Below are positions 9,484-61,792 of a DNA stretch of 64,000 bases, piece by piece (positions within the stretch are counted from its first letter, which is position 1; each line of letters opens with the position of its first letter). The translations under genes were made by a program, and so were the position numbers. The stretch is from Minisyncoccota bacterium. GTDB lineage: Bacteria; Patescibacteriota; Minisyncoccia; Phycocordibacterales; UBA2100. The DNA is taken from the NCBI GenBank assembly GCA_043780835.1, contig JAYWCB010000001.1, forward strand, positions 103,738 through 167,737. Reading direction: 5' to 3'. Below the pieces are notes generated by a model. The model ran no database searches. It saw only the letters and a list, made by a program, of their open reading frames with translations, and was not told the DNA's origin.

Positions 9484-9738
9484 TCAATGGAGAAATTCTA
9501 ATCGGAGCGGTTCAAATCCCCACACAAGAACGAGCGAAACGATAGTGCAAAGCGGAAACATAGTGAGCACAGAGTCATGCGGAAGCCACAGAAAATCAAG
9601 CAGGCTACCGAGCGCTACCGCCTCAAGCGCTCGAAATCGAACTGAAAGCACCACAATACACACCGCGGTTATCCACGGCGCAATAAATAATGAGGCGATT
9701 GCACCGAGCGCGGTACACATGACACGAAACGGAATCAT
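9484..9738 (-). CDS. mreD: Short MreD-like membrane protein
   Basis: 84-aa protein with 3 TM helices located between mreC and mrdA. Its start codon overlaps the mreC stop (ATGA). Assigned by position and hydrophobicity only. Confidence 0.4.
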   Translation of the reverse strand: MIPFRVMCTALGAIASLFIAPWITAVCIVVLSVRFRALEAVALGSLLDFLWLPHDSVLTMFPLCTIVSLVLVWGFEPLRLEFLH

Positions 9739-10553
9739 GGCGCAGGAATAATATAGACAAAGCGAATCAGCGACACGTTGACCGGCAATACGATATACAC
9801 TTTTTGCTCGGCGGTTGTCGAAACCGCTTCCACCTTTCCGACAATACCCACGGGATGGCCGCCCAACGTCGGTGCCGTAACCGTGTCACCCACCTGTACA
9901 TTGATACCCCGGGGCACATCCACGCGAGCGTTTCCGTTTCCTTGCCCCGTGGCGGTAACAGCAGCATTTCCGACAACGACGTCAATGTTTGATCCGTTTT
10001 GAAATACCGATTTCACGAGCGTATGCGTTTCACCAACGTCTGCCACGCGCGCGACCACATACCCTGTTTCGCTTAATACCAAGTCACCTTTTGCAATTGC
10101 ATCATTTGCGCCCGCGCTCACCAGAAATGTTCCGTACGGCGATGCGTGATACGACGAAACGACGCGCGCTGTAATACCCGGCGATGATTGCGTAAATCGT
10201 AGCATCGTGCGGAGCGTGTCATTTTCTTGCTTGAGCGCACCATACGCAAACGCGCGCTCTTGCAATGCTGTTAATTGCATTTTTAGGTTTTCATTTTCGG
10301 TGGCGAGCGTGCTGTTTCGAGCAAAAAAACCGCTTCCCGCTACGGATGAACGAGCAGAAGCTGCACCCGTCCACAGCGTGGCACCGGCGCTTCGTATAAA
10401 GTTTCGAAACGGACCTCCCAGCAACGCATCAAGCCCAAAAACACAGAGAATAAAAATTGTTATAAACAAAAGCGTACTTCGTCCCCGTGGCGCACCATGG
10501 AGTGTACGATGCGAAAATTCCTGACGTGCCATACCCGTCACACGAAACGGCAT
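9735..10553 (-). CDS. mreC: Rod shape-determining protein MreC
   Basis: N-terminal TM helix, coiled coil (LATENENLKMQLTALQERAFAYGALKQENDTLRTML) and a beta-rich C-terminal domain. Immediately downstream of mreB. Confidence 0.75.
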   Translation of the reverse strand: MPFRVTGMARQEFSHRTLHGAPRGRSTLLFITIFILCVFGLDALLGGPFRNFIRSAGATLWTGAASARSSVAGSGFFARNSTLATENENLKMQLTALQERAFAYGALKQENDTLRTMLRFTQSSPGITARVVSSYHASPYGTFLVSAGANDAIAKGDLVLSETGYVVARVADVGETHTLVKSVFQNGSNIDVVVGNAAVTATGQGNGNARVDVPRGINVQVGDTVTAPTLGGHPVGIVGKVEAVSTTAEQKVYIVLPVNVSLIRFVYIIPAP

Positions 10554-10665
10554 TGTCTTTGCATGCCATTTGAAATGAATAATGTCATCACTATTGTGGT
10601 TGCCTTTGTCTGCATAGATGGAATGATTCGACGCATGCTATGCCGTTTCGTGTGAATGGACATAT

Positions 10666-11742
10666 TTAGAATCTATCGTTTGCCAAAAGTTCTTCGTCGC
10701 TGCGAAGCATTGCTTCTTTGTACAACTCCATGTCGTTGAGAATAATTGACGTACCGCGCACGACCGCCGTCAGCGGATCCGACGCGACCGTAACCGGTAC
10801 GCCCAGGTTTCGTGAAAAGTATTCCGGCAAACCCCGTATGAGCGCACCACCGCCTGCAAGATAAATGCCTCGCTGTACGATATCTCCGACGATTTCCGGC
10901 GGGGTGGTTTCTAGCACCTCTTTAATGGAATCAACAAGCTCTTCAATAGAGTGACCAATTGCGTTTCTGATGTCTTGATCGGATACGAGGATCTCGCGCG
11001 GCAAACCCGTCACCAAGTCGCGGCCGCGAATTATTGCTTCGATACGATCACGGTTTAATGCGACAGACGCAATCGCTATCTTGACTTCTTCAGCTGTCTT
11101 TTCGCCGATAAGCATTTTAAATTCATTGCGGATATGACTCACGATGTCGCTATTGAAACGATCGCCCGCAATTCGTACATTGCGTGCATTTACCAATCCG
11201 CCGAGACTGACGATACCGATGTCCGTTGTGCCTCCGCCAATATCAACAATCATGCTTCCGGTCGGCTCGTGAACCGGGAGCTCAATACCAATAGCGGCCG
11301 CCAGCGGCTCTTCCACAATATGGACTTCTCGCGCACCTGCGGCGCGCGCTGCATCGCGAACCGCACGCACTTCAACTGAAGTAATACCCGAAGGCACGCC
11401 GACCGCCACACGGGGTCCGAGCATTTTTGATTTACCGCCCTGCGCTTTATCAATAAGGTACGCAAGCATTTCCGATGTAACTTCGAAGTCAGAAATGACT
11501 CCGTCAACAACCGGTTGTACCGCTTGAATATGTGCCGGTGTTCTGCCGAGCATGTCTTTTGCAACCTGTCCGACGGCAACCACTTGTCCCGTTTTTGTAT
11601 TCACCGCAACAATCGACGGTTCATTGATGACGATGCCGCGCCCCTTTACATACACGAGAGTATTCGCAGTGCCGAGATCGATGCCAATGTCGAGTGAGAA
11701 ATAGCCGAGTATTTTGTCTTTAAATTTTCGAAACGAATCCAT
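10666..11742 (-). CDS. mreB: Rod shape-determining protein MreB (actin homolog)
   Basis: LDIGIDLGTANTLVYVKGRGIVINEPSIVAV..., DIGGGTTDIGIVSLGG and the full actin-fold ATPase motifs. 358 aa. Confidence 0.9.
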   Translation of the reverse strand: MDSFRKFKDKILGYFSLDIGIDLGTANTLVYVKGRGIVINEPSIVAVNTKTGQVVAVGQVAKDMLGRTPAHIQAVQPVVDGVISDFEVTSEMLAYLIDKAQGGKSKMLGPRVAVGVPSGITSVEVRAVRDAARAAGAREVHIVEEPLAAAIGIELPVHEPTGSMIVDIGGGTTDIGIVSLGGLVNARNVRIAGDRFNSDIVSHIRNEFKMLIGEKTAEEVKIAIASVALNRDRIEAIIRGRDLVTGLPREILVSDQDIRNAIGHSIEELVDSIKEVLETTPPEIVGDIVQRGIYLAGGGALIRGLPEYFSRNLGVPVTVASDPLTAVVRGTSIILNDMELYKEAMLRSDEELLANDRF

Positions 11743-11757
11743 GATATTTCAACCGCA

Positions 11758-13011
11758 TTACTCGCAAAGGTACTCAATGACGCGGCTGTCCGCAAGAAAA
11801 GAAGTTGATCCGTTTTTCCTATCCATAACCTCTACGCCACCCTCGGCCATTGTCTTTTCTGAGACGATGATGCGCGTAGGAATTCCCATAAGTTCAGCGT
11901 CTGCAAATTTTTCTCCGGCACGCACATCGCGGTCATCGAACAATACTTCAATGCCGTGTTCTTGAAGCTCCTCGTACATACGCACCGCTTCAGCAACCAC
12001 GTCTTCATTACCGCCCGAGAGCACGAGCAAATGCACCGCATACGGTGCAACTGATTTCGGCCACACAATTCCTTTTTCGTCAGCGAACTTCTCTACGAGT
12101 ACGCCCATGAGACGAGTGATTCCAATACCATATGAACCCATCCATACAGGAGCTTCAGCACCCTGCGCATCTTTGACCGAAAGCCCAAGATCGCGCGCTT
12201 TTTCTTGCCCGAAATTAAATATGTTTCCGACTTCCGCCGAATTAACTTTTTCCAAAGAGTCGCGCTCAATTCCGAGCGTTTCAAGCGTCTCGTCATTGAG
12301 CACTTCTTCGTTGATGGCGATACCTCTCTCGCGGTTGATATAAATACAGTCTTCTCCCGTTTCGCAGACAGTCTGGAATTCGTGACTGTATTTGGTAAAT
12401 GCGCCACCTGCCGCAAACGTGATATAGGTGTCTGGCCCTAAACCGAGCCGCTCAAAAACACGCATGTATGCAGGCTTTACGGATTCGTAATAGGAAAGAT
12501 GCGATGCTTCATCGGCGGCAAATGAGTACATGTCGTTCATGACGAACTCTCGTCCGCGCATGATGCCGCTTTTTGCTCGTGTTTCGTTGCGAAGCTTTGT
12601 CTGGAACTGATACACGGATACCGGGAGGTCTTTGTAGCTCGAAATGTAATTTTTCATCATCTCTCCGCTCGGTTCTTCATGACTCCAACCGAATCCGACT
12701 TCACCTCCTGCTTTGAGTTCTGATTTGAACCACACGTCGACGACACCATCGTCCCATCGTCCCGTTTTTTCCCACAATTCTTTTTTTTGCAGAGTGGTCA
12801 TAATGAGCTCCTGCCCATCGACGGAGTTCATTTCTTCGCGGACAATCTGCTTAATCTTTTCTAAAACCCGAATTCCGAGCGGCAAATAGGCATACACGCC
12901 GGCCATTTCTTTATGAATATAGCCCGCTCTGATAAGCAGTTGCGCATTTTTTGCGACTTCGTCTTTTGGCGCCTCCTTTCGAGTTTTCGTAAATAGGTGC
13001 GATTGGCGCAT
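11758..13011 (-). CDS. proS: Prolyl-tRNA synthetase, short bacterial-type form lacking the INS editing domain
   Basis: MRQSHLFTKTRKEAPKDEVAKNAQLLIRAGYIHKEMAGVYAYLPLG matches the bacterial ProS N-terminus. Class II motifs and an anticodon-binding domain are present. Only about 417 aa. Confidence 0.85.
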   Translation of the reverse strand: MRQSHLFTKTRKEAPKDEVAKNAQLLIRAGYIHKEMAGVYAYLPLGIRVLEKIKQIVREEMNSVDGQELIMTTLQKKELWEKTGRWDDGVVDVWFKSELKAGGEVGFGWSHEEPSGEMMKNYISSYKDLPVSVYQFQTKLRNETRAKSGIMRGREFVMNDMYSFAADEASHLSYYESVKPAYMRVFERLGLGPDTYITFAAGGAFTKYSHEFQTVCETGEDCIYINRERGIAINEEVLNDETLETLGIERDSLEKVNSAEVGNIFNFGQEKARDLGLSVKDAQGAEAPVWMGSYGIGITRLMGVLVEKFADEKGIVWPKSVAPYAVHLLVLSGGNEDVVAEAVRMYEELQEHGIEVLFDDRDVRAGEKFADAELMGIPTRIIVSEKTMAEGGVEVMDRKNGSTSFLADSRVIEYLCE

Positions 13012-13210
13012 ACGTTGGCACATAGTATCAGATGCGCAGTCGCGTACAAAAAGGCGGTATTCTGGCCTTTTTGGGCTTATGAAAAAAAGCGCTTGTCAGC
13101 GCCGGAAAATACAGGTACATTCAGCGGGAATTGCACTCTCCCGTGCTACGATCACCTCACGCGGAGGTAGGTACTGTTAAGTAGTGCATTCGTGATCCTT
13201 TTCCCTAACC

Positions 13211-48498: not shown

Positions 48499-49866
48499 CT
48501 AGTGAGCTACCGGGAATGACACAATAAAGTGTGATCCCACTCCGACGATGGACTCAATTGAAATTGTACCTCGCATTTCCTTCACCAGTTGCGCGGTGAT
48601 CCACAAGCCCAGTCCGGTCCCGATAATCGACTCGGTTTCGTGCGAATGAATGCGAAAGAATTTCTGGAATAGTTTCTCACGATTTTCGGCACTGATGCCC
48701 ATGCCGGTATCACTGATGCGGATTAAAGCGCGTCCGTCCTCGCTATATTGACTGATTGTAACACCTCCGGCTTTTGTGTATTTCAGCGCATTGCCGATCA
48801 AATTCACCATCACCTGCCGCAGTCGCGCCGCATCGATCATTATTTGATCTGCAGCGGCTTTGCTTTGGTCGAGTGAGAGTTGTAAGCCTTTCTCATGCGC
48901 GAGCAATTCAAATGACGAAACAGCTGCCGCAACGATGTCGCGCACGTCACAGAGCTCCATTTTGAATTCCATCCGACCTTGCTCAATGCGTGACACTTCC
49001 AACATATCGCTCACGAGCGCATCAAGTCCTTTTGCAGCGAATTCAATTTTCTGCGCGTATGTAGTTGCCTCTGTAGGAAGACCCTTTGAATTATTGAGGA
49101 ATTCCGCGTATCCGCGAATAATCGTCAACGGGGCACGCAATTCGTGTGATGCCATGGAGATAAAGTCATCTTTGAATTGATCGACTTCTTTCAGGCGACG
49201 GTAAAGATCCATGTAATCGACGATTCGCGAATGACGCAGAAAGAGAAACAGAATGAGCACAATAACGGCAATCAACAGGTAGATGCTGTCGGTGATGTTT
49301 TTTTCGATTGCACGGTCGGCTTGGGATAGCGTTTGGGTAGTGAGTGCAACACCCACGACGTTTTGTTGTGCATCTACAATGGCGCGTGCGGTATTGAAGT
49401 ACCGTTCAGATCCTCTTTTAGTTTCTGTAGTAAATGAATGCGACGGATCGCCCGAGACGAGCGAATACAATACATCGGTATCGCGAGAGGCTTTGCCGAT
49501 TTCTGAACGATCATTCGAGGCGATAATAATGTATGCGGTGGTTGTTGCATCGGTAAACACGAGGCGTTTCTGCACAATGCGAAATTGTTGAATGGTTTCG
49601 TTGGAGCGGATCACATCGTCAATCCGAGCATTCAAATATGCTGGATCATCCATTCTGTCCGCTGCAAACGATACGAACGCGTCCTGCAGAGAGCCGATTC
49701 GCACGTTCACCAGACGGTCTTGCGCGTCCCCTGCGATGCCGATAAACCGGCTCGCCATAAAGATAAACGCGCCCACGATAATAACCGCGATCAGAATCGT
49801 GTATATGAGCTGTGGGTTACTCCCTATCTTTTGAATCCCCGCCCTGAGGCGTTCGAAAAAAGGCAC
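48499..49866 (-). CDS. Membrane sensor histidine kinase
   Basis: Two TM helices flank a periplasmic sensor. H-box MASHELRAPLTIIRGYAEFL. HATPase_c (NLIGNALKYT, DTGMGI, GTGLGL). Confidence 0.8.
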   Translation of the reverse strand: MPFFERLRAGIQKIGSNPQLIYTILIAVIIVGAFIFMASRFIGIAGDAQDRLVNVRIGSLQDAFVSFAADRMDDPAYLNARIDDVIRSNETIQQFRIVQKRLVFTDATTTAYIIIASNDRSEIGKASRDTDVLYSLVSGDPSHSFTTETKRGSERYFNTARAIVDAQQNVVGVALTTQTLSQADRAIEKNITDSIYLLIAVIVLILFLFLRHSRIVDYMDLYRRLKEVDQFKDDFISMASHELRAPLTIIRGYAEFLNNSKGLPTEATTYAQKIEFAAKGLDALVSDMLEVSRIEQGRMEFKMELCDVRDIVAAAVSSFELLAHEKGLQLSLDQSKAAADQIMIDAARLRQVMVNLIGNALKYTKAGGVTISQYSEDGRALIRISDTGMGISAENREKLFQKFFRIHSHETESIIGTGLGLWITAQLVKEMRGTISIESIVGVGSHFIVSFPVAH

Positions 49867-49904: not shown

Positions 49905-50282
49905 TTATGCGACTGCCGCTACGGATACAAATCCTCCATGGGACTCACGATGACAATTTGCACATAAAAGAATACATTTGTCCGCTTCAGTTTTCATTTT
50001 CTCCCAAGATCTGGTGATACCGCCCCTTGAAATTCCGAATGATTTATTCTTGTCGTCAGTATGATGCAGATCGAGCGCACCATAGTATTTACAATATCCA
50101 CAACGAACGCACTTTCCACCCTTGTACTCGACGAGCATTCTTTTAAGTTTTCTTCTACGGTCGGAAACTGCTTTTTTTAGATATTCCGCTCTATCGGCAT
50201 ATGTTCTTTTTTCTTTCTGAACCATGGTATACAAGATAAGTATACCGCGGGTTCTCAGCTTCACCGAATTGCAAATAGCCAT
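49905..50282 (-). CDS. HNH endonuclease
   Basis: CVRCGYC...LDLHHTDDKNKS...N...CILLCANCHRESH is a CxxC...HH...N...CxxCH zinc-finger HNH nuclease motif. The longer ORF (to 50462) would overlap the tRNA, so the start is placed at MAICNS (MVQKEK is also possible). Confidence 0.6.
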   Translation of the reverse strand: MAICNSVKLRTRGILILYTMVQKEKRTYADRAEYLKKAVSDRRRKLKRMLVEYKGGKCVRCGYCKYYGALDLHHTDDKNKSFGISRGGITRSWEKMKTEADKCILLCANCHRESHGGFVSVAAVA

Positions 50283-50325
50283 TTTTTGGCTACTATACGC
50301 AAGTCCATGCAGCGCATGGTCATAT

Positions 50326-50646
50326 TCCGCGGTGGCGCAACGGTAGCGCAGCTCGCTGTCAAAGGCAGCTTTCCGGAGGAATCCGGAAATGAAAACGAGG
50401 AGAATTGCTGGAAGCCTCACTTTTCGCGTTGAAAAAGTGGTAATCAGCAGCCGAGCCTGCATTCGCAGGAAGGTTCAGAGACTATCCCATATGGGAGTAG
50501 GTCCGCACAGTTAATTTTCTGGCGGCCCGAAGCACCTCGCATCCGACAACTATCTGATAGTTGGGATGATGATATAGTCCACCCCTTTTGGAAACATAAG
50601 GACACGTGTAACGAGTTGGTTGTAGGTTCGAATCCTACCCGCGGAG
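50326..50646 (+). tRNA. tRNA-Asn (anticodon GUU) interrupted by a group I intron in the anticodon loop
   Basis: Exon 1 is 50326-50359 (TCCGCGG-TG-GCGC-AACGGTA-GCGC-A-GCTCG-CTGT). Exon 2 is 50609-50646 (TAA-CGAGT-TGGTT-GTAGG-TTCGAAT-CCTAC-CCGCGGA-G). The spliced loop CUGUUAA and discriminator G match tRNA-Asn; anticodon UGU (Thr) is possible if the splice site is shifted. Confidence 0.75.
50360..50608 (+). ncRNA. Group I self-splicing intron (249 nt) within tRNA-Asn
   Basis: P1 can form between exon end GCUGU and internal guide GCAGC with a U-G pair at the 5' splice site. P 50403-50414, Q 50442-50451, R GTTCAGAGACTA 50473-50484, S GATGATATAGTCC 50568-50580. P2-like 50373-50386, P8-like 50547-50563. 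Intron ends in G. Confidence 0.75.
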
Positions 50647-52344
50647 CAAGTTAGGACGACGGGACTCGAAAGAGTCCTTTTGTCGTTTATTAGAGCCGAC
50701 TTTTTCAGGTTCTAACCCATTGGTTAATAACCTTTGATTTTTTATCTCGTTTTCGATCAGAAGATATGGATGCAGCATCTCTACGCTTAGCGTGCGGTCT
50801 TTTAGAGTTAGGTTCGAGCCGATTGATCCAAATATCGTTCGTTTCGTCTGTAAGTCGGCTGTAGTCGTGAATTGACGCTTTGCCAGTGCGCAAAATGAGA
50901 AAACCCGCTCAGCTGTTTCCAAATCCCGATCTAATTTTTCCTTTGTGCCGAAAAGTTCTGCTTCCAGACGGCCCCGTTCTATGTTCAGCTCCATCTTGAG
51001 CTTTCGAAACTCCTCTTGCGTGTAGAGCTCATAATTCGTGTTCAGCGGGGATGTGAATTCACGACTCAAGTTCACCAAACGTTTCTGACATGTGTCGTAG
51101 GACGATTGCAGCGACTGTCGCATAGCCCTTTCTTCGCGGCCTGAATTCTTCTCTACATCATTAAGGTAATCGAGGGCTAGTTTCAAGTAGTCCTCGTCAA
51201 TTGTCAATCCGGTTAGTATCTGCGAAAACTGAAGTTCTAAAGATTCGAGGCGTATCGTTTTTTGTGAGCATTTTCTATTCTTCTTCTTTGTACATCGGTA
51301 ATATACATAATTCAGAATTGTGGGTTTTGTCATCGCAGAGATGTCCATATGGCAATTCGGGCAAGCCGATTTGCTTTCGTATGCAAACTTATGCTTACAG
51401 CTTGTGCAGATCAACTGATTCTTTTCCTCTGCGGTAATCGAAGAATCGCATTCACCGCATCGCATAAGGCCTGTGTAAGCGAATTGTCGCGTCTTAGGCT
51501 GCTGTTTTCCTCTTTTACCTAACAATATTTGGGCGCGACGGTATTCCGCCTCCGTAATGATTGGTCGATGATTTCCTTTGATCATTCTGCGCTCACCGCT
51601 CTCTGGGTCGGTCCACGGATAAGATCCATAGTAAAAAGTATCACTGAAGATGTTATACATGTGGCTCATCGAAAGAGGTTTACCGCCGATTTTTCGACGC
51701 GGCAGAGTCGTTAGATGCCACTCTTTCGTTGCGATATCTCGGATCTTAGAAACAGAATATGCGCCCGTCAGAAACAGATCCCACATTTTACGCACTAGCT
51801 CAAAACGTTCGGGATCAATGTCTATAGTTTTGCTTCCTTTTTCTGTGCCGACATTAAGATAACCAATTGGACCTCCAGATGGACGCCAACCCCGCATTGC
51901 TTTGCTATTGAGACCTCGTTTTACGTTCTTTGACAAACGCATCACATAGTCCGTGGCACGTCCACCCTCAATACTCATGAGCAATCCGGCATCTTCCGGG
52001 TAGTAAGAACGTCCGGGGGTTTTTATCTCCTTTATGACACCCTTTTGAAGCATCCATTGCAGGCGCCCGTTATCAATCGGATTGCGAGAAAGACGATCGA
52101 TATCCCAACACAAAAGCCCATTGGCTTCACCAGACTGTATTCGGTCTAATAGGGCGTCGAACACAGGCCTCCCCGGGTCTTTAGCGCTACGCTCTTCAGT
52201 AAAGGGTTCTCGCGCCAAAACAACGCCCTCACGCTCAGCGAGTCCGCTTAGGGCATTGATTTGATCGCCTATAGATGCAACTTGCCGCTGCGAGTCTTCT
52301 GAACTCTTACGGCAGTATGCAAAGTATTTTAGAGACTGACCCAT
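50635..52344 (-). CDS. Large serine recombinase (resolvase/invertase-type catalytic domain, recombinase domain and zinc ribbon)
   Basis: N-terminus KYFAYCRKSSEDSQRQVASIGDQ (catalytic Ser region) ... DIDRLSRN. Central recombinase domain. Cys-rich zinc ribbon (CGECDSS...CTSC...CPNC). Coiled coil. Last codons LLRG and the stop lie inside the tRNA-Asn 3' acceptor stem. Confidence 0.85.
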   Translation of the reverse strand: MGQSLKYFAYCRKSSEDSQRQVASIGDQINALSGLAEREGVVLAREPFTEERSAKDPGRPVFDALLDRIQSGEANGLLCWDIDRLSRNPIDNGRLQWMLQKGVIKEIKTPGRSYYPEDAGLLMSIEGGRATDYVMRLSKNVKRGLNSKAMRGWRPSGGPIGYLNVGTEKGSKTIDIDPERFELVRKMWDLFLTGAYSVSKIRDIATKEWHLTTLPRRKIGGKPLSMSHMYNIFSDTFYYGSYPWTDPESGERRMIKGNHRPIITEAEYRRAQILLGKRGKQQPKTRQFAYTGLMRCGECDSSITAEEKNQLICTSCKHKFAYESKSACPNCHMDISAMTKPTILNYVYYRCTKKKNRKCSQKTIRLESLELQFSQILTGLTIDEDYLKLALDYLNDVEKNSGREERAMRQSLQSSYDTCQKRLVNLSREFTSPLNTNYELYTQEEFRKLKMELNIERGRLEAELFGTKEKLDRDLETAERVFSFCALAKRQFTTTADLQTKRTIFGSIGSNLTLKDRTLSVEMLHPYLLIENEIKNQRLLTNGLEPEKVGSNKRQKDSFESRRPNLLRG

Positions 52345-54022: not shown

Positions 54023-54671
54023 GCGTTTTAGGCTTATAAATAGCGTCTACTAGCGCGATCAATTTTTCGAAATATTCCAAAGCGGCATCGTCAGAAATAG
54101 CGCTGCCGGTCGTCTCCTCGTAGAGAGTTTTGAATCTTTCGATGTATCTATTTTTTTCGACCATAGCAAAAACCTCCACTCAGCTCTGCGGATCACTTGG
54201 ATGATTCGCAGAACTAAAGGGAGGTTCAGCAGAGTCCAAGTTTCCGCAAATAAAAAATACCGCCTATTAAGCGGATTCTTGGACTGGTATGAGATTTATA
54301 CGATACAGGCTAAGAATGTCGCTTAAAGCAAGCAGTATTCTTAAACCCACAGCAGATCGTTACGCAAAAGAGTTTTGCGAAAAACGGCATTGGGTGCCTG
54401 AAAGAACGTCCCACCAATCATATCCACCTTTTAGATCTGGTCAATTGATTTATCCCCAGAGACTGCAATAATAACTTCACAATTGAATATCGAGCCGCAA
54501 GGCTAGTGCCTAAACCGCCGGAGCAATCCTCGGCATGGCACGAAATCCCACGTGAATACTGAACCCGTCGTTCAGCTCCATTCACGTGGTCTTACGGGGA
54601 AACTCGTAAGGAGCAGCAATGCTCGGCTAGCGGCGGGCTTTGTGTTGCCTGCCGCAAGCATTATTTAAGTA

Positions 54672-60079: not shown

Positions 60080-61792
60080 CTAGACTACAACGGGGACGTA
60101 AAAATCCCGTCCGCCGGCAATTACCCAGGTTCTAACAGCCTCAACGGTTCGGAGCAATGTAGGACCAAGGGACTCGAAAGAGTCCTTTTGTCGTTTAGAC
60201 ATTGGCTTTTTGGAGGTTCGAGCGGACACTTCTTCAGAATCCAAAGAATGCTTATTCTCCATTATGGTTAAGAAGAAAGGATGTAGGTCTACATTGATTT
60301 TTTGGTCTTTTAGCACGAGGTTCGAGCCGAGGCACGCGAGAATGGAACGCTTGGTCACTTTATCTCCGTTCTCGAACCAAACACGCGCATAACAGGCAAA
60401 ATTGAACGTCTTTTCACTCAATTCAAGCCATTGCTCCTTCTCTCGACCCTTATCCGCTAAATCACTCTCAAGCGAATTTTTGCGATTGAGGAGCGTACCC
60501 TTCATAGATTGATATTCATTATTTGAAATAAGACTGCTGTCTGCGTTTTGGAGCGACGTATATCTCAACAAGAGACCGTCAAGCTGCTTGTTAATCACTT
60601 CTAGCTCCGCGTGTTTTTTTCGCAAATCTTTTTCCTGATTTTCGGCTTCAGTTGTTCGAATTTCAGAAAGATGTTTAAGAGCCCACGCTTTAAACTTTTC
60701 CGAAATGGTTACGCTTTCAAGAAGCTCTAGGACCTGACGGTTCAATTCCTTAAGTTCAATTGATTTTTCCGTACAGTTAGGATTTTTCTTATGTGTGCAG
60801 TGGTAATAGACATAATGATGTACATTTCCGTTTTTTTGCTGCTTAACTTTCGGTTCGGCAGTAATACTGCTACCGCAGCTCGCACAACGCATCAGACTGC
60901 CCGTAAAGGCCATTTCGTGATGTGTCTTTGGTCGCGGCGCACCCTTCCGACCTAGACGTTCCTGCACTAGGTTATATTCCCACTCACATATCATCGGCTC
61001 ATGTTGACCTTTCTGCCACACAAGTTCTCCCGTGTCTTTATCCTTATATTGAAACCACCCGTAATAAAAAGAATTTTTGAATATGTTTTTATAAACGTAG
61101 CTGCGCGTTAAATGCTTTCCACCAATATTTCTATGCGGAACTGTTGTGAGGCCCCATTCCTTTGACTGTTTCCAGACTTCGGCGGCAGTGTATTGCCCCG
61201 CAAGCATCAAGTCCCACATTCTACGGACCAGATAAAAGCGCTCTGGGTCTTTCTCAATGGTCTTATATCCCTTTGGTTTATCGGGAGTATTGCGATAGCC
61301 AATGGGCGCCCCTGACGGTCTCCAACCCAACTTTGCTTTGCTATTCAGACCTCGCTTTACATCAATACCCTTGTTGTCGTTTTCCAACTTTGCCTGCATA
61401 CACAGGAAGCTCAACCAAAACTTATTATCTGGTGTATTTCGATAAGTTTGTTGCGGAGTCCTGACCTCAACAACCGTATTAAGGTCGAGAAGGTAAATTA
61501 GAGTTCCTGTATCAACCGCATTTCTTGAAAGTCTATTGGGATGCCAAACAAGAATTCCGCTCGCTTCGCCCATATTAATCCGCTCCACCATTGTTTTGAA
61601 GTCAGGTCTGCTATTGGGGACTTTTGCCGAGTGCGATTCCTCAAACCAATCCACAATCTTTAAATCATCCTTATCCGCAATTATTTTCAGTTCCTCACGC
61701 TGCGAAGAAATCGAGAGCATTTGTCGGTCTTCTTGCTCACTCGACTTTCTCAAATACGCAAAGTATTTAATGGGACTCTTTTCCAAGGACAT
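60080..61792 (-). CDS. Large serine recombinase (paralog of 50635-52344)
   Basis: KYFAYLRKSSEQEDRQMLSISSQ ... HPNRLSRN, a zinc ribbon (CASCGSS...HYVYYHCTHKKNPNC) and a coiled coil. Shares the C-terminal KRQKDSFES motif with the first recombinase. Confidence 0.85.
   Translation of the reverse strand: MSLEKSPIKYFAYLRKSSEQEDRQMLSISSQREELKIIADKDDLKIVDWFEESHSAKVPNSRPDFKTMVERINMGEASGILVWHPNRLSRNAVDTGTLIYLLDLNTVVEVRTPQQTYRNTPDNKFWLSFLCMQAKLENDNKGIDVKRGLNSKAKLGWRPSGAPIGYRNTPDKPKGYKTIEKDPERFYLVRRMWDLMLAGQYTAAEVWKQSKEWGLTTVPHRNIGGKHLTRSYVYKNIFKNSFYYGWFQYKDKDTGELVWQKGQHEPMICEWEYNLVQERLGRKGAPRPKTHHEMAFTGSLMRCASCGSSITAEPKVKQQKNGNVHHYVYYHCTHKKNPNCTEKSIELKELNRQVLELLESVTISEKFKAWALKHLSEIRTTEAENQEKDLRKKHAELEVINKQLDGLLLRYTSLQNADSSLISNNEYQSMKGTLLNRKNSLESDLADKGREKEQWLELSEKTFNFACYARVWFENGDKVTKRSILACLGSNLVLKDQKINVDLHPFFLTIMENKHSLDSEEVSARTSKKPMSKRQKDSFESLGPTLLRTVEAVRTWVIAGGRDFYVPVVV

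Follow-up and report, generated by a model that had tools for sequence, protein, structure and literature searches.

A predicted self-splicing group I intron at position 35/36 of a Patescibacteria tRNA-Asn gene, adjacent to a free-standing HNH endonuclease gene

The classical group I introns of bacterial tRNA genes interrupt tRNA-Leu(UAA) at positions 34/35, tRNA-fMet at 33/34, and tRNA-Arg(CCU) and tRNA-Ile(CAU) at 36/37. They belong to subgroup IC3, and lack the P7.1 and P7.2 hairpins. The preprint by Williams (2020; bioRxiv 10.1101/2020.01.27.920355), by use of tFind, raises from 4 to 21 the number of bacterial tRNA classes known to have introns. The class denominated 'Asn.4Ug' in that work is equated by Nakagawa et al. 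(2026; PMC13011429) with a tRNA-Asn intron inserted between anticodon positions 35 and 36. In 95 complete Patescibacteria genomes, these authors identified 15 tRNA-Asn genes interrupted at 35/36 by a group I intron. In a set of 4,934 complete genomes, they counted 28 introns at the same site, 19 of which in Patescibacteria, and 25 of the 28 were classed in subgroup IA. Precise self-splicing was obtained in vitro, a G-to-C change at the terminal G serving as control. A genome seldom had, for one anticodon, both a copy with an intron and a copy without (PMC13011429). A second group of described systems, to which we return below, consists of phage introns lacking ORFs and accompanied by free-standing endonuclease genes.

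The intron described here is a further member of the published, experimentally validated class of tRNA-Asn 35/36 introns. It is located in a window of 64,000 nt, the term denoting the whole stretch of DNA that was analysed. Two exons on the + strand, 50326-50359 (positions 1-35 of the tRNA, ending in CUGU) and 50609-50646 (U36 to the discriminator G73, with no encoded CCA), flank a 249-nt intron that has no ORF (50360-50608, +). Once joined, the exons are recognized by ARAGORN as a canonical tRNA-Asn(gtt). The program finds no tRNA at 50326-50646 in default mode, and with introns allowed reports a tRNA-Thr(tgt) i(33,249) at 50326-50647.

The splice junction could be fixed by comparison with intron-less alleles, which were retrieved from the DNA around genes for histidine kinases homologous (69-70% identical) to the one encoded nearby in the window. 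Loci L123 (GCA_040959275.1) and L125 both host an intron-less tRNA-Asn(GTT) gene near the kinase gene, in matching relative orientation. The joined exons are identical to the L125 tRNA at 72/72 positions, and to the L123 tRNA at 71/72. The anticodon loop reads CTGTTAA in both, and only a junction at 35/36 reproduces it. The complete identity to the L125 allele thus places the splice site between nucleotides 35 and 36 of the anticodon, and close relatives differ in having or lacking the intron as one discrete block of 249 nt. A sequence-only reading of this DNA had assembled the cloverleaf from the same two segments, named the gene tRNA-Asn(GUU) split after anticodon position 35, and proposed that the intron ends in omega-G. 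All this is borne out by the ARAGORN call and by the two alleles, which place G50608 directly before exon 2. The spliced tRNA is also 70/72 identical to the tRNA of a Nomurabacteria genome.

Genes surrounding the tRNA locate the window in the phylum. Numerous homologues, 55-88% identical, exist for the ProRS gene (11758-13023, -) and the histidine-kinase gene (48499-49866, -); those with a name are from Minisyncoccia, Paceibacterota, Pacebacteria, Taylorbacteria and Patescibacteria group genomes, which assigns the window to a Patescibacteria genome. Upstream of the tRNA, the TATAAT box found 11 nt before the intron-less genes in L123 and L125 aligns with the window sequence TACTAT (50291-50296). 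About 18 extra nt, including a short palindrome (CCATGC...GCATGG), separate this box from the tRNA start in the window. ARAGORN in intron mode also reports, at 9620-10807 (-), a tRNA-Val with a 1091-nt 'intron'. This is probably a false positive, as the segment has no group I match and spans large ORFs.

The Rfam model RF00028 (Intron_gpI), a search with which had been suggested as a check, matches positions 50350-50601 (+) over its full length (1-253), with a score of 71.4 bits (E 3.8e-16) against a gathering score of 50 bits. No further group I match was detected in the 64-kb window, even at E<=0.1. The P (AATTGCTGGAAG, 50403-50414), Q (AATCAGCAGC, 50442-50451), R (GTTCAGAGACTA, 50473-50484) and S (GATGATATAGTCC, 50568-50580) core elements, all on the + strand, are found where the sequence-only reading had placed them. 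A P1 helix with U-G at the 5' splice site, and the P2 and P8 hairpins, all named in that reading, are present too. Helices P3, P5, P6, P7.1, P7.2 and P9, which that reading had not listed, are present as well.

Relatives of the intron were collected by scanning one genome per species with a degenerate DNA pattern made of the S element, the terminal G, TAA and the T-loop. At least 120 loci were found, and 96 of those listed pass a strict split tRNA-Asn test. The window intron and 53 introns not exceeding 300 nt were aligned by MAFFT, and a hand-derived structure was mapped onto the alignment. For this structure, derived from the window's own sequence, 89.3% of the cells in the 54 introns form a standard pair, vs 34-44% when 3' partners are slid by 1-3 columns, and changes on both sides are observed in 45/61 pairs. 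None of 500 shuffles reached the observed pairing and covariation values. The unconstrained minimum-energy fold of the window intron recovers P1-P6, P7.1, P7.2, P8 and P9 (z = -2.8).

Individual helices, all on the + strand, can be described as follows. P1 (50355-50369 in the Rfam alignment) is formed by GCUGU/C, the slash marking the splice site, with GGCAGC, and has an AAA loop. U50359.G50365, the wobble pair marking the 5' splice site, is conserved in 54/54 introns, and three further pairs between exon and guide are invariant. P2 (50371-50388) is a 7-bp hairpin with a GGAA tetraloop, in which 7/7 pairs have changed on both sides; like P8, it is part of the minimum-energy fold. The 5' strand of P3 (CGAGG, 50396-50400) pairs with CCUCG at 50535-50539 (5/5 double changes, 99.3% of cells paired). 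P4 (50406-50411/50444-50449; 5/6 double changes, 98.4% paired) encloses P5, made by 50415-50416/50439-50440 plus a distal hairpin. The C-G pair 50416/50439 is invariant, and in the window sequence the conserved register of P5 competes with a shifted 8-bp helix. P6 (50450-50451/50473-50474) has an inner stem, 50456-50460/50465-50469, with 5/5 double changes and 97% of cells paired. P7, the guanosine-binding helix, forms a pseudoknot with P3: its 5' strand (50478-50484, in the R element, with A50479 bulged) pairs with 50575-50580 of the S element, and the 6/6 pairs are invariant in 54/54 introns, although the invariance of the S element, and hence of part of P7, as well as that of the terminal G and the following TAA, is partly forced by the search pattern.

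The 46 nt found between P7 and the 3' strand of P3 are an insertion relative to the Rfam model, and contain two hairpins, both part of the minimum-energy fold. These are P7.1 (50485-50488/50493-50496) and P7.2 (50500-50506/50522-50528, extended by 50508-50510/50519-50521), the two together occupying 50485-50528. Double changes occur in 11/11 of their pairs, with only 66-74% of cells paired on the MAFFT alignment. As P7.1 and P7.2 are a hallmark of subgroup IA, the intron may be described as IA-like. P8 (50541-50567) has double changes at 3/4 basal pairs and 95.8% of cells paired. P9 (50584-50601), a hairpin with a GAAA tetraloop (6/7 double changes, 76% paired), is followed by the tail ACACGUG, ending at the omega-G 50608.

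It is very probable that the window hosts a tRNA-Asn(GUU) gene of Patescibacteria (Paceibacteria-type) split between U35 and U36 by a 249-nt, ORF-less, IA-like group I ribozyme able to splice itself. The splicing pathway of group I introns is well established, and provides the basis for the mechanism proposed. The pre-tRNA would be transcribed as a unit of its own. Pairing of the exon end GCUGU with the internal guide GCAGC would form P1, in which U35.G50365 would mark the 5' splice site. An external guanosine bound in P7 would attack after U35; G50608, the last nucleotide of the intron, would then take its place in the pocket, and the 3'-OH released on U35 would attack after G50608. The ligated exons would make a 72-nt tRNA-Asn with the anticodon loop CUGUUAA. 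We infer that splicing takes place along these lines in this organism.

Two other interpretations of the locus have been weighed. The gene could be a tRNA-Thr(UGU) with an intron at 33/34, two nucleotides upstream, as called by ARAGORN in intron mode; in this register too, a U would precede the 5' junction and the intron would end in G. In it, however, U50357 would pair with A50367 rather than form a U.G wobble, and Rfam places the consensus U.G on U50359.G50365. The shifted register would moreover give an anticodon loop CTTGTAA, whereas the intron-less alleles have CTGTTAA. The U1-A72 pair and the discriminator G73 are typical of bacterial tRNA-Asn, and count against the threonine reading. 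The same two-base error of ARAGORN and tFind was met by Nakagawa et al. (PMC13011429), who confirmed the 35/36 site by sequencing of spliced products. Intron-less Thr or Asn tRNA genes, looked for in the first 121 loci for isotype comparison, were absent. The intron-less alleles and the splice-site U.G pair refute the tRNA-Thr register, to which practically no credit is left. According to the other interpretation, an intron that has become an inactive relic persists in a tRNA pseudogene, tRNA-Asn being supplied from elsewhere in the genome. The view of the genome spans 64 kb, and an intron devoid of an endonuclease gene is what is expected late in a homing cycle. Yet every core helix is intact, and all the residues invariant across the 54 relatives are present in the window intron. 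The exons are identical to those of a functional-looking intron-less allele (L125), and copies of one anticodon with and without intron rarely coexist (PMC13011429). A relic is accordingly very unlikely, and a working ribozyme in a tRNA-Asn gene is the reading retained here.

The window intron shares with the class of Nakagawa et al. the host tRNA, the insertion site, the phylum and the P1 design (CUGU/.aaaGGCAGC), and has, as in subgroup IA, putative hairpins between P7 and the 3' strand of P3. The size is similar (249 nt, vs a mean of 257), and the ARAGORN miscall as tRNA-Thr is common to both (PMC13011429). It differs in coming from another genome, in sequence, and in having an endonuclease gene located outside the intron. 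The classical bacterial tRNA introns, in contrast, reside in other tRNAs and at other loop positions. Since 35/36 tRNA-Asn introns have been catalogued, and their self-splicing published, in the same phylum, neither site nor lineage is new, and the suggestion to the contrary made by the sequence-only reading has to be dropped.

Among the matches listed, the closest introns are 77-84% identical to that of the window over 213-229 aligned columns. The closest of these matches is L113 from Kaiserbacteria (83%), other close ones being L101 (Uhrbacteria), L024 (Saccharibacteria) and L096 (unclassified Patescibacteria-group); identities for these four fall in the range 82-84%. Identity to the Saccharimonadia tRNA-Asn intron self-spliced by Nakagawa et al. 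is 76% over 215 columns. The class is found also in genomes labelled as Cyanobacteria, Acidobacteriota, Nitrospira, Elusimicrobia, Ignavibacteria and several proteobacterial groups, but bin labels may be unreliable.

An intact, free-standing HNH homing-endonuclease gene (49905-50225, -), encoding 106 aa, is located 101 nt upstream of the tRNA-Asn gene and is divergent from it. The public annotation features here a 185-aa ORF (49905-50462, -), which extends through exon 1 and covers 103 intron nucleotides. Translation, with its CxxC...HH...CxNCH pattern, sets the real start at the ATG at 50225. In tblastn searches, the protein matches endonuclease genes residing inside tRNA-Asn introns of the fetched loci with E values from 1e-47 to 1e-22. 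It keeps 24/24 invariant residues of the family, among which C39, C42, H54, H55, C88, N90, C91, H92 and H96. The Pfam HNH model matches 18/25 family members (E<=0.01). The window copy alone scores 13.8 bits, under the cutoff of 21.4, and a Pfam search made with the 185-aa form of the ORF gave no match. The family profile also matches the endonuclease-domain region of the group II intron maturase 6me0_C (E 3e-4).

This gene family is normally carried in the P1 loop of tRNA-Asn introns. Homologues are found within the intron in at least 25 loci, on the tRNA strand and just past the 5' splice site. Nakagawa et al. (PMC13011429), who looked for endonuclease genes only inside introns >500 bp, found an HNH gene in four introns, of the same family as the window gene. 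Three intron-borne copies (L064, L011, L068) have internal in-frame stops, which suggest decay, in introns otherwise intact. No endonuclease homologue is found in the intron-less relatives L123 and L125. A remnant of the tRNA-Asn 3' end was sought upstream of the endonuclease gene, and the search gave only the 8-mer ACCCGCGG, a match rejected given its shuffle p of about 0.12.

Metagenome contigs were scanned with the family alignment, and at least 563 confirmed relatives were obtained, the best 80 of which were classified by layout. In this subset, the gene is inside a split tRNA-Asn in 53 loci, free-standing beside a split tRNA-Asn in 5, and free-standing beside an intron-less tRNA-Asn in 8, at distances of 16-109 nt and in two cases within tRNA arrays. 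The remaining 14 loci are not classifiable, most being cut by the contig end near the gene. The layout of the window locus, an ORF-less intron with an adjacent free-standing endonuclease gene, resembles that of collaborative homing. Eight further such pairs have been identified (L038, L041, L085, L131, L149, L160, L187, L204). The L038 layout is as in the window, while the gene is downstream of the tRNA on the same strand in L041, and upstream on the same strand in L085.

The four closest relatives of the window endonuclease among the matches listed (L130, L129, L041, L131) are all free-standing. The first two of these matches, L130 (74%) and L129 (73%), lie beside an intact tRNA-Asn. The L041 and L130 endonucleases are 91% identical, and in both loci the gene lies downstream of the tRNA-Asn gene, which is interrupted by a 223-nt intron in L041 but uninterrupted in L130. 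Of 17 free-standing copies, 9 have another free-standing copy as nearest relative, vs 2.9 expected (p about 0.005). The remaining ones are scattered across the family, implying that the layout has switched several times. Endonuclease relatives are found directly after tRNA-Asn in dense tRNA arrays in L203 and in L206, a human gut metagenome contig with 21 tRNAs within 4.3 kb. These arrays look phage-like, and recall by analogy SegB among the clustered tRNA genes of T4.

'Collaborative homing' is known from phages, and stages have been proposed by which endonuclease genes invade ORF-less introns (Hausner et al. 2014; PMC3984707). The three layouts observed here match these stages, as well as the phage collaborative-homing layout. 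The cyanophage S-PM2 psbA intron with F-CphI, and T4 mobE with I-TevIII (PMC3984707; PMC2790892), similarly associate an ORF-less intron in a conserved gene with an adjacent free-standing endonuclease. Unlike these, the window pairing is in a tRNA gene of a cellular chromosome and is known from sequence, and relatives of the enzyme also adjoin intron-less tRNA-Asn genes. In T4, tRNA genes are likewise accompanied by a free-standing homing endonuclease, SegB (PMC2330249). This enzyme belongs to the GIY-YIG family, not to HNH, and has no intron involved. Free-standing copies are not mentioned in the main text of Nakagawa et al. (PMC13011429), and no other report of them was found in a literature search of incomplete coverage.

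We infer both that the HNH protein is active as an endonuclease and what its target would be. The enzyme probably drives, or once drove, spread of the locus at the DNA level. The window may represent a middle stage in the formation of a mobile intron in a cellular genome; if the enzyme cuts intron-less tRNA-Asn alleles, the intron would be mobilised in trans. This is put forward tentatively, its chances being judged well short of even. A role of the gene apart from the intron has to be set against it: the HNH gene could take no part in intron mobility, being either a relic or an independent selfish element homing to the flanks of tRNA-Asn genes, with or without intron. Within the best 80 of the at least 563 relatives, free-standing copies beside an intron-less tRNA-Asn outnumber those beside a split one (8 vs 5), and the closest relatives among the matches listed, L130 and L129, adjoin intact tRNA-Asn genes. 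An enzyme that cuts the intron insertion site would be intolerable to a host whose own site is intact. The occurrence of relatives beside an intact tRNA-Asn argues that the target is not simply this site, or that host copies are immune. On the other hand, the family is inside the intron in 53/66 classifiable metagenome loci of the same subset, the spread of intron-borne copies requires cutting of intron-less tRNA-Asn, and the gene is absent from L123 and L125, which have no intron. A gene without part in intron mobility is in our judgement a serious possibility, somewhat short of an even chance. The free-standing endonuclease gene is the only part of the locus that may add something new. Mobilisation in trans, if true, would weaken the published inference that the tRNA-Asn 35/36 introns rarely move, most of them lacking an endonuclease gene; the layouts suggest that ORF-less tRNA introns may be more mobile than the absence of an internal endonuclease gene implies.

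The practical value of the intron lies in annotation. The split gene is missed by standard tRNA finders and called tRNA-Thr by intron-aware ARAGORN, and the 106-aa ORF has been overextended to 185 aa; because of such errors, Patescibacteria genomes seem to lack tRNA-Asn. The endonuclease family, with at least 563 metagenome relatives, displays three layouts around one conserved tRNA gene. Near-identical pairs differing only in the presence of the intron, as L041/L130, are natural material on the entry and exit of endonucleases in group I introns, and this near-matched pair suits the study of intron gain and loss.

A terminator-like hairpin followed by a T-run (50661-50688, +), found by consensus scan only, begins 15 nt past the tRNA 3' end. 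It is part of a 48-nt repeat (50642-50689), which includes the last 5 nt of tRNA-Asn, and recurs at 60150-60197 with 92% DNA identity. Two large serine recombinase genes, at 50635-52344 (-) and 60080-61792 (-), share this 48-nt repeat, and the encoded proteins are only 38% identical. The repeat looks like an attachment-site or terminator repeat bounding an element of ~9.5 kb inserted immediately past the tRNA. No second copy of the T-arm/acceptor sequence, which might mark an island boundary, was found in the window with up to 3 mismatches allowed. GC content falls from ~0.49 to ~0.45 at the putative element, and the 48-nt repeat contains the end of a public contig from this genome. In L123 also, a serine recombinase gene converges on the tRNA-Asn 3' end. 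A literature search on the LOOT RNA of Rfam (RF03000) retrieved no relevant paper. A full-length match to this model, scoring 71.6 bits against a gathering score of 46.4, is found at 54507-54624 (+), inside the putative element, between the genes for an AAA_25 ATPase and a peptidoglycan-binding protein.
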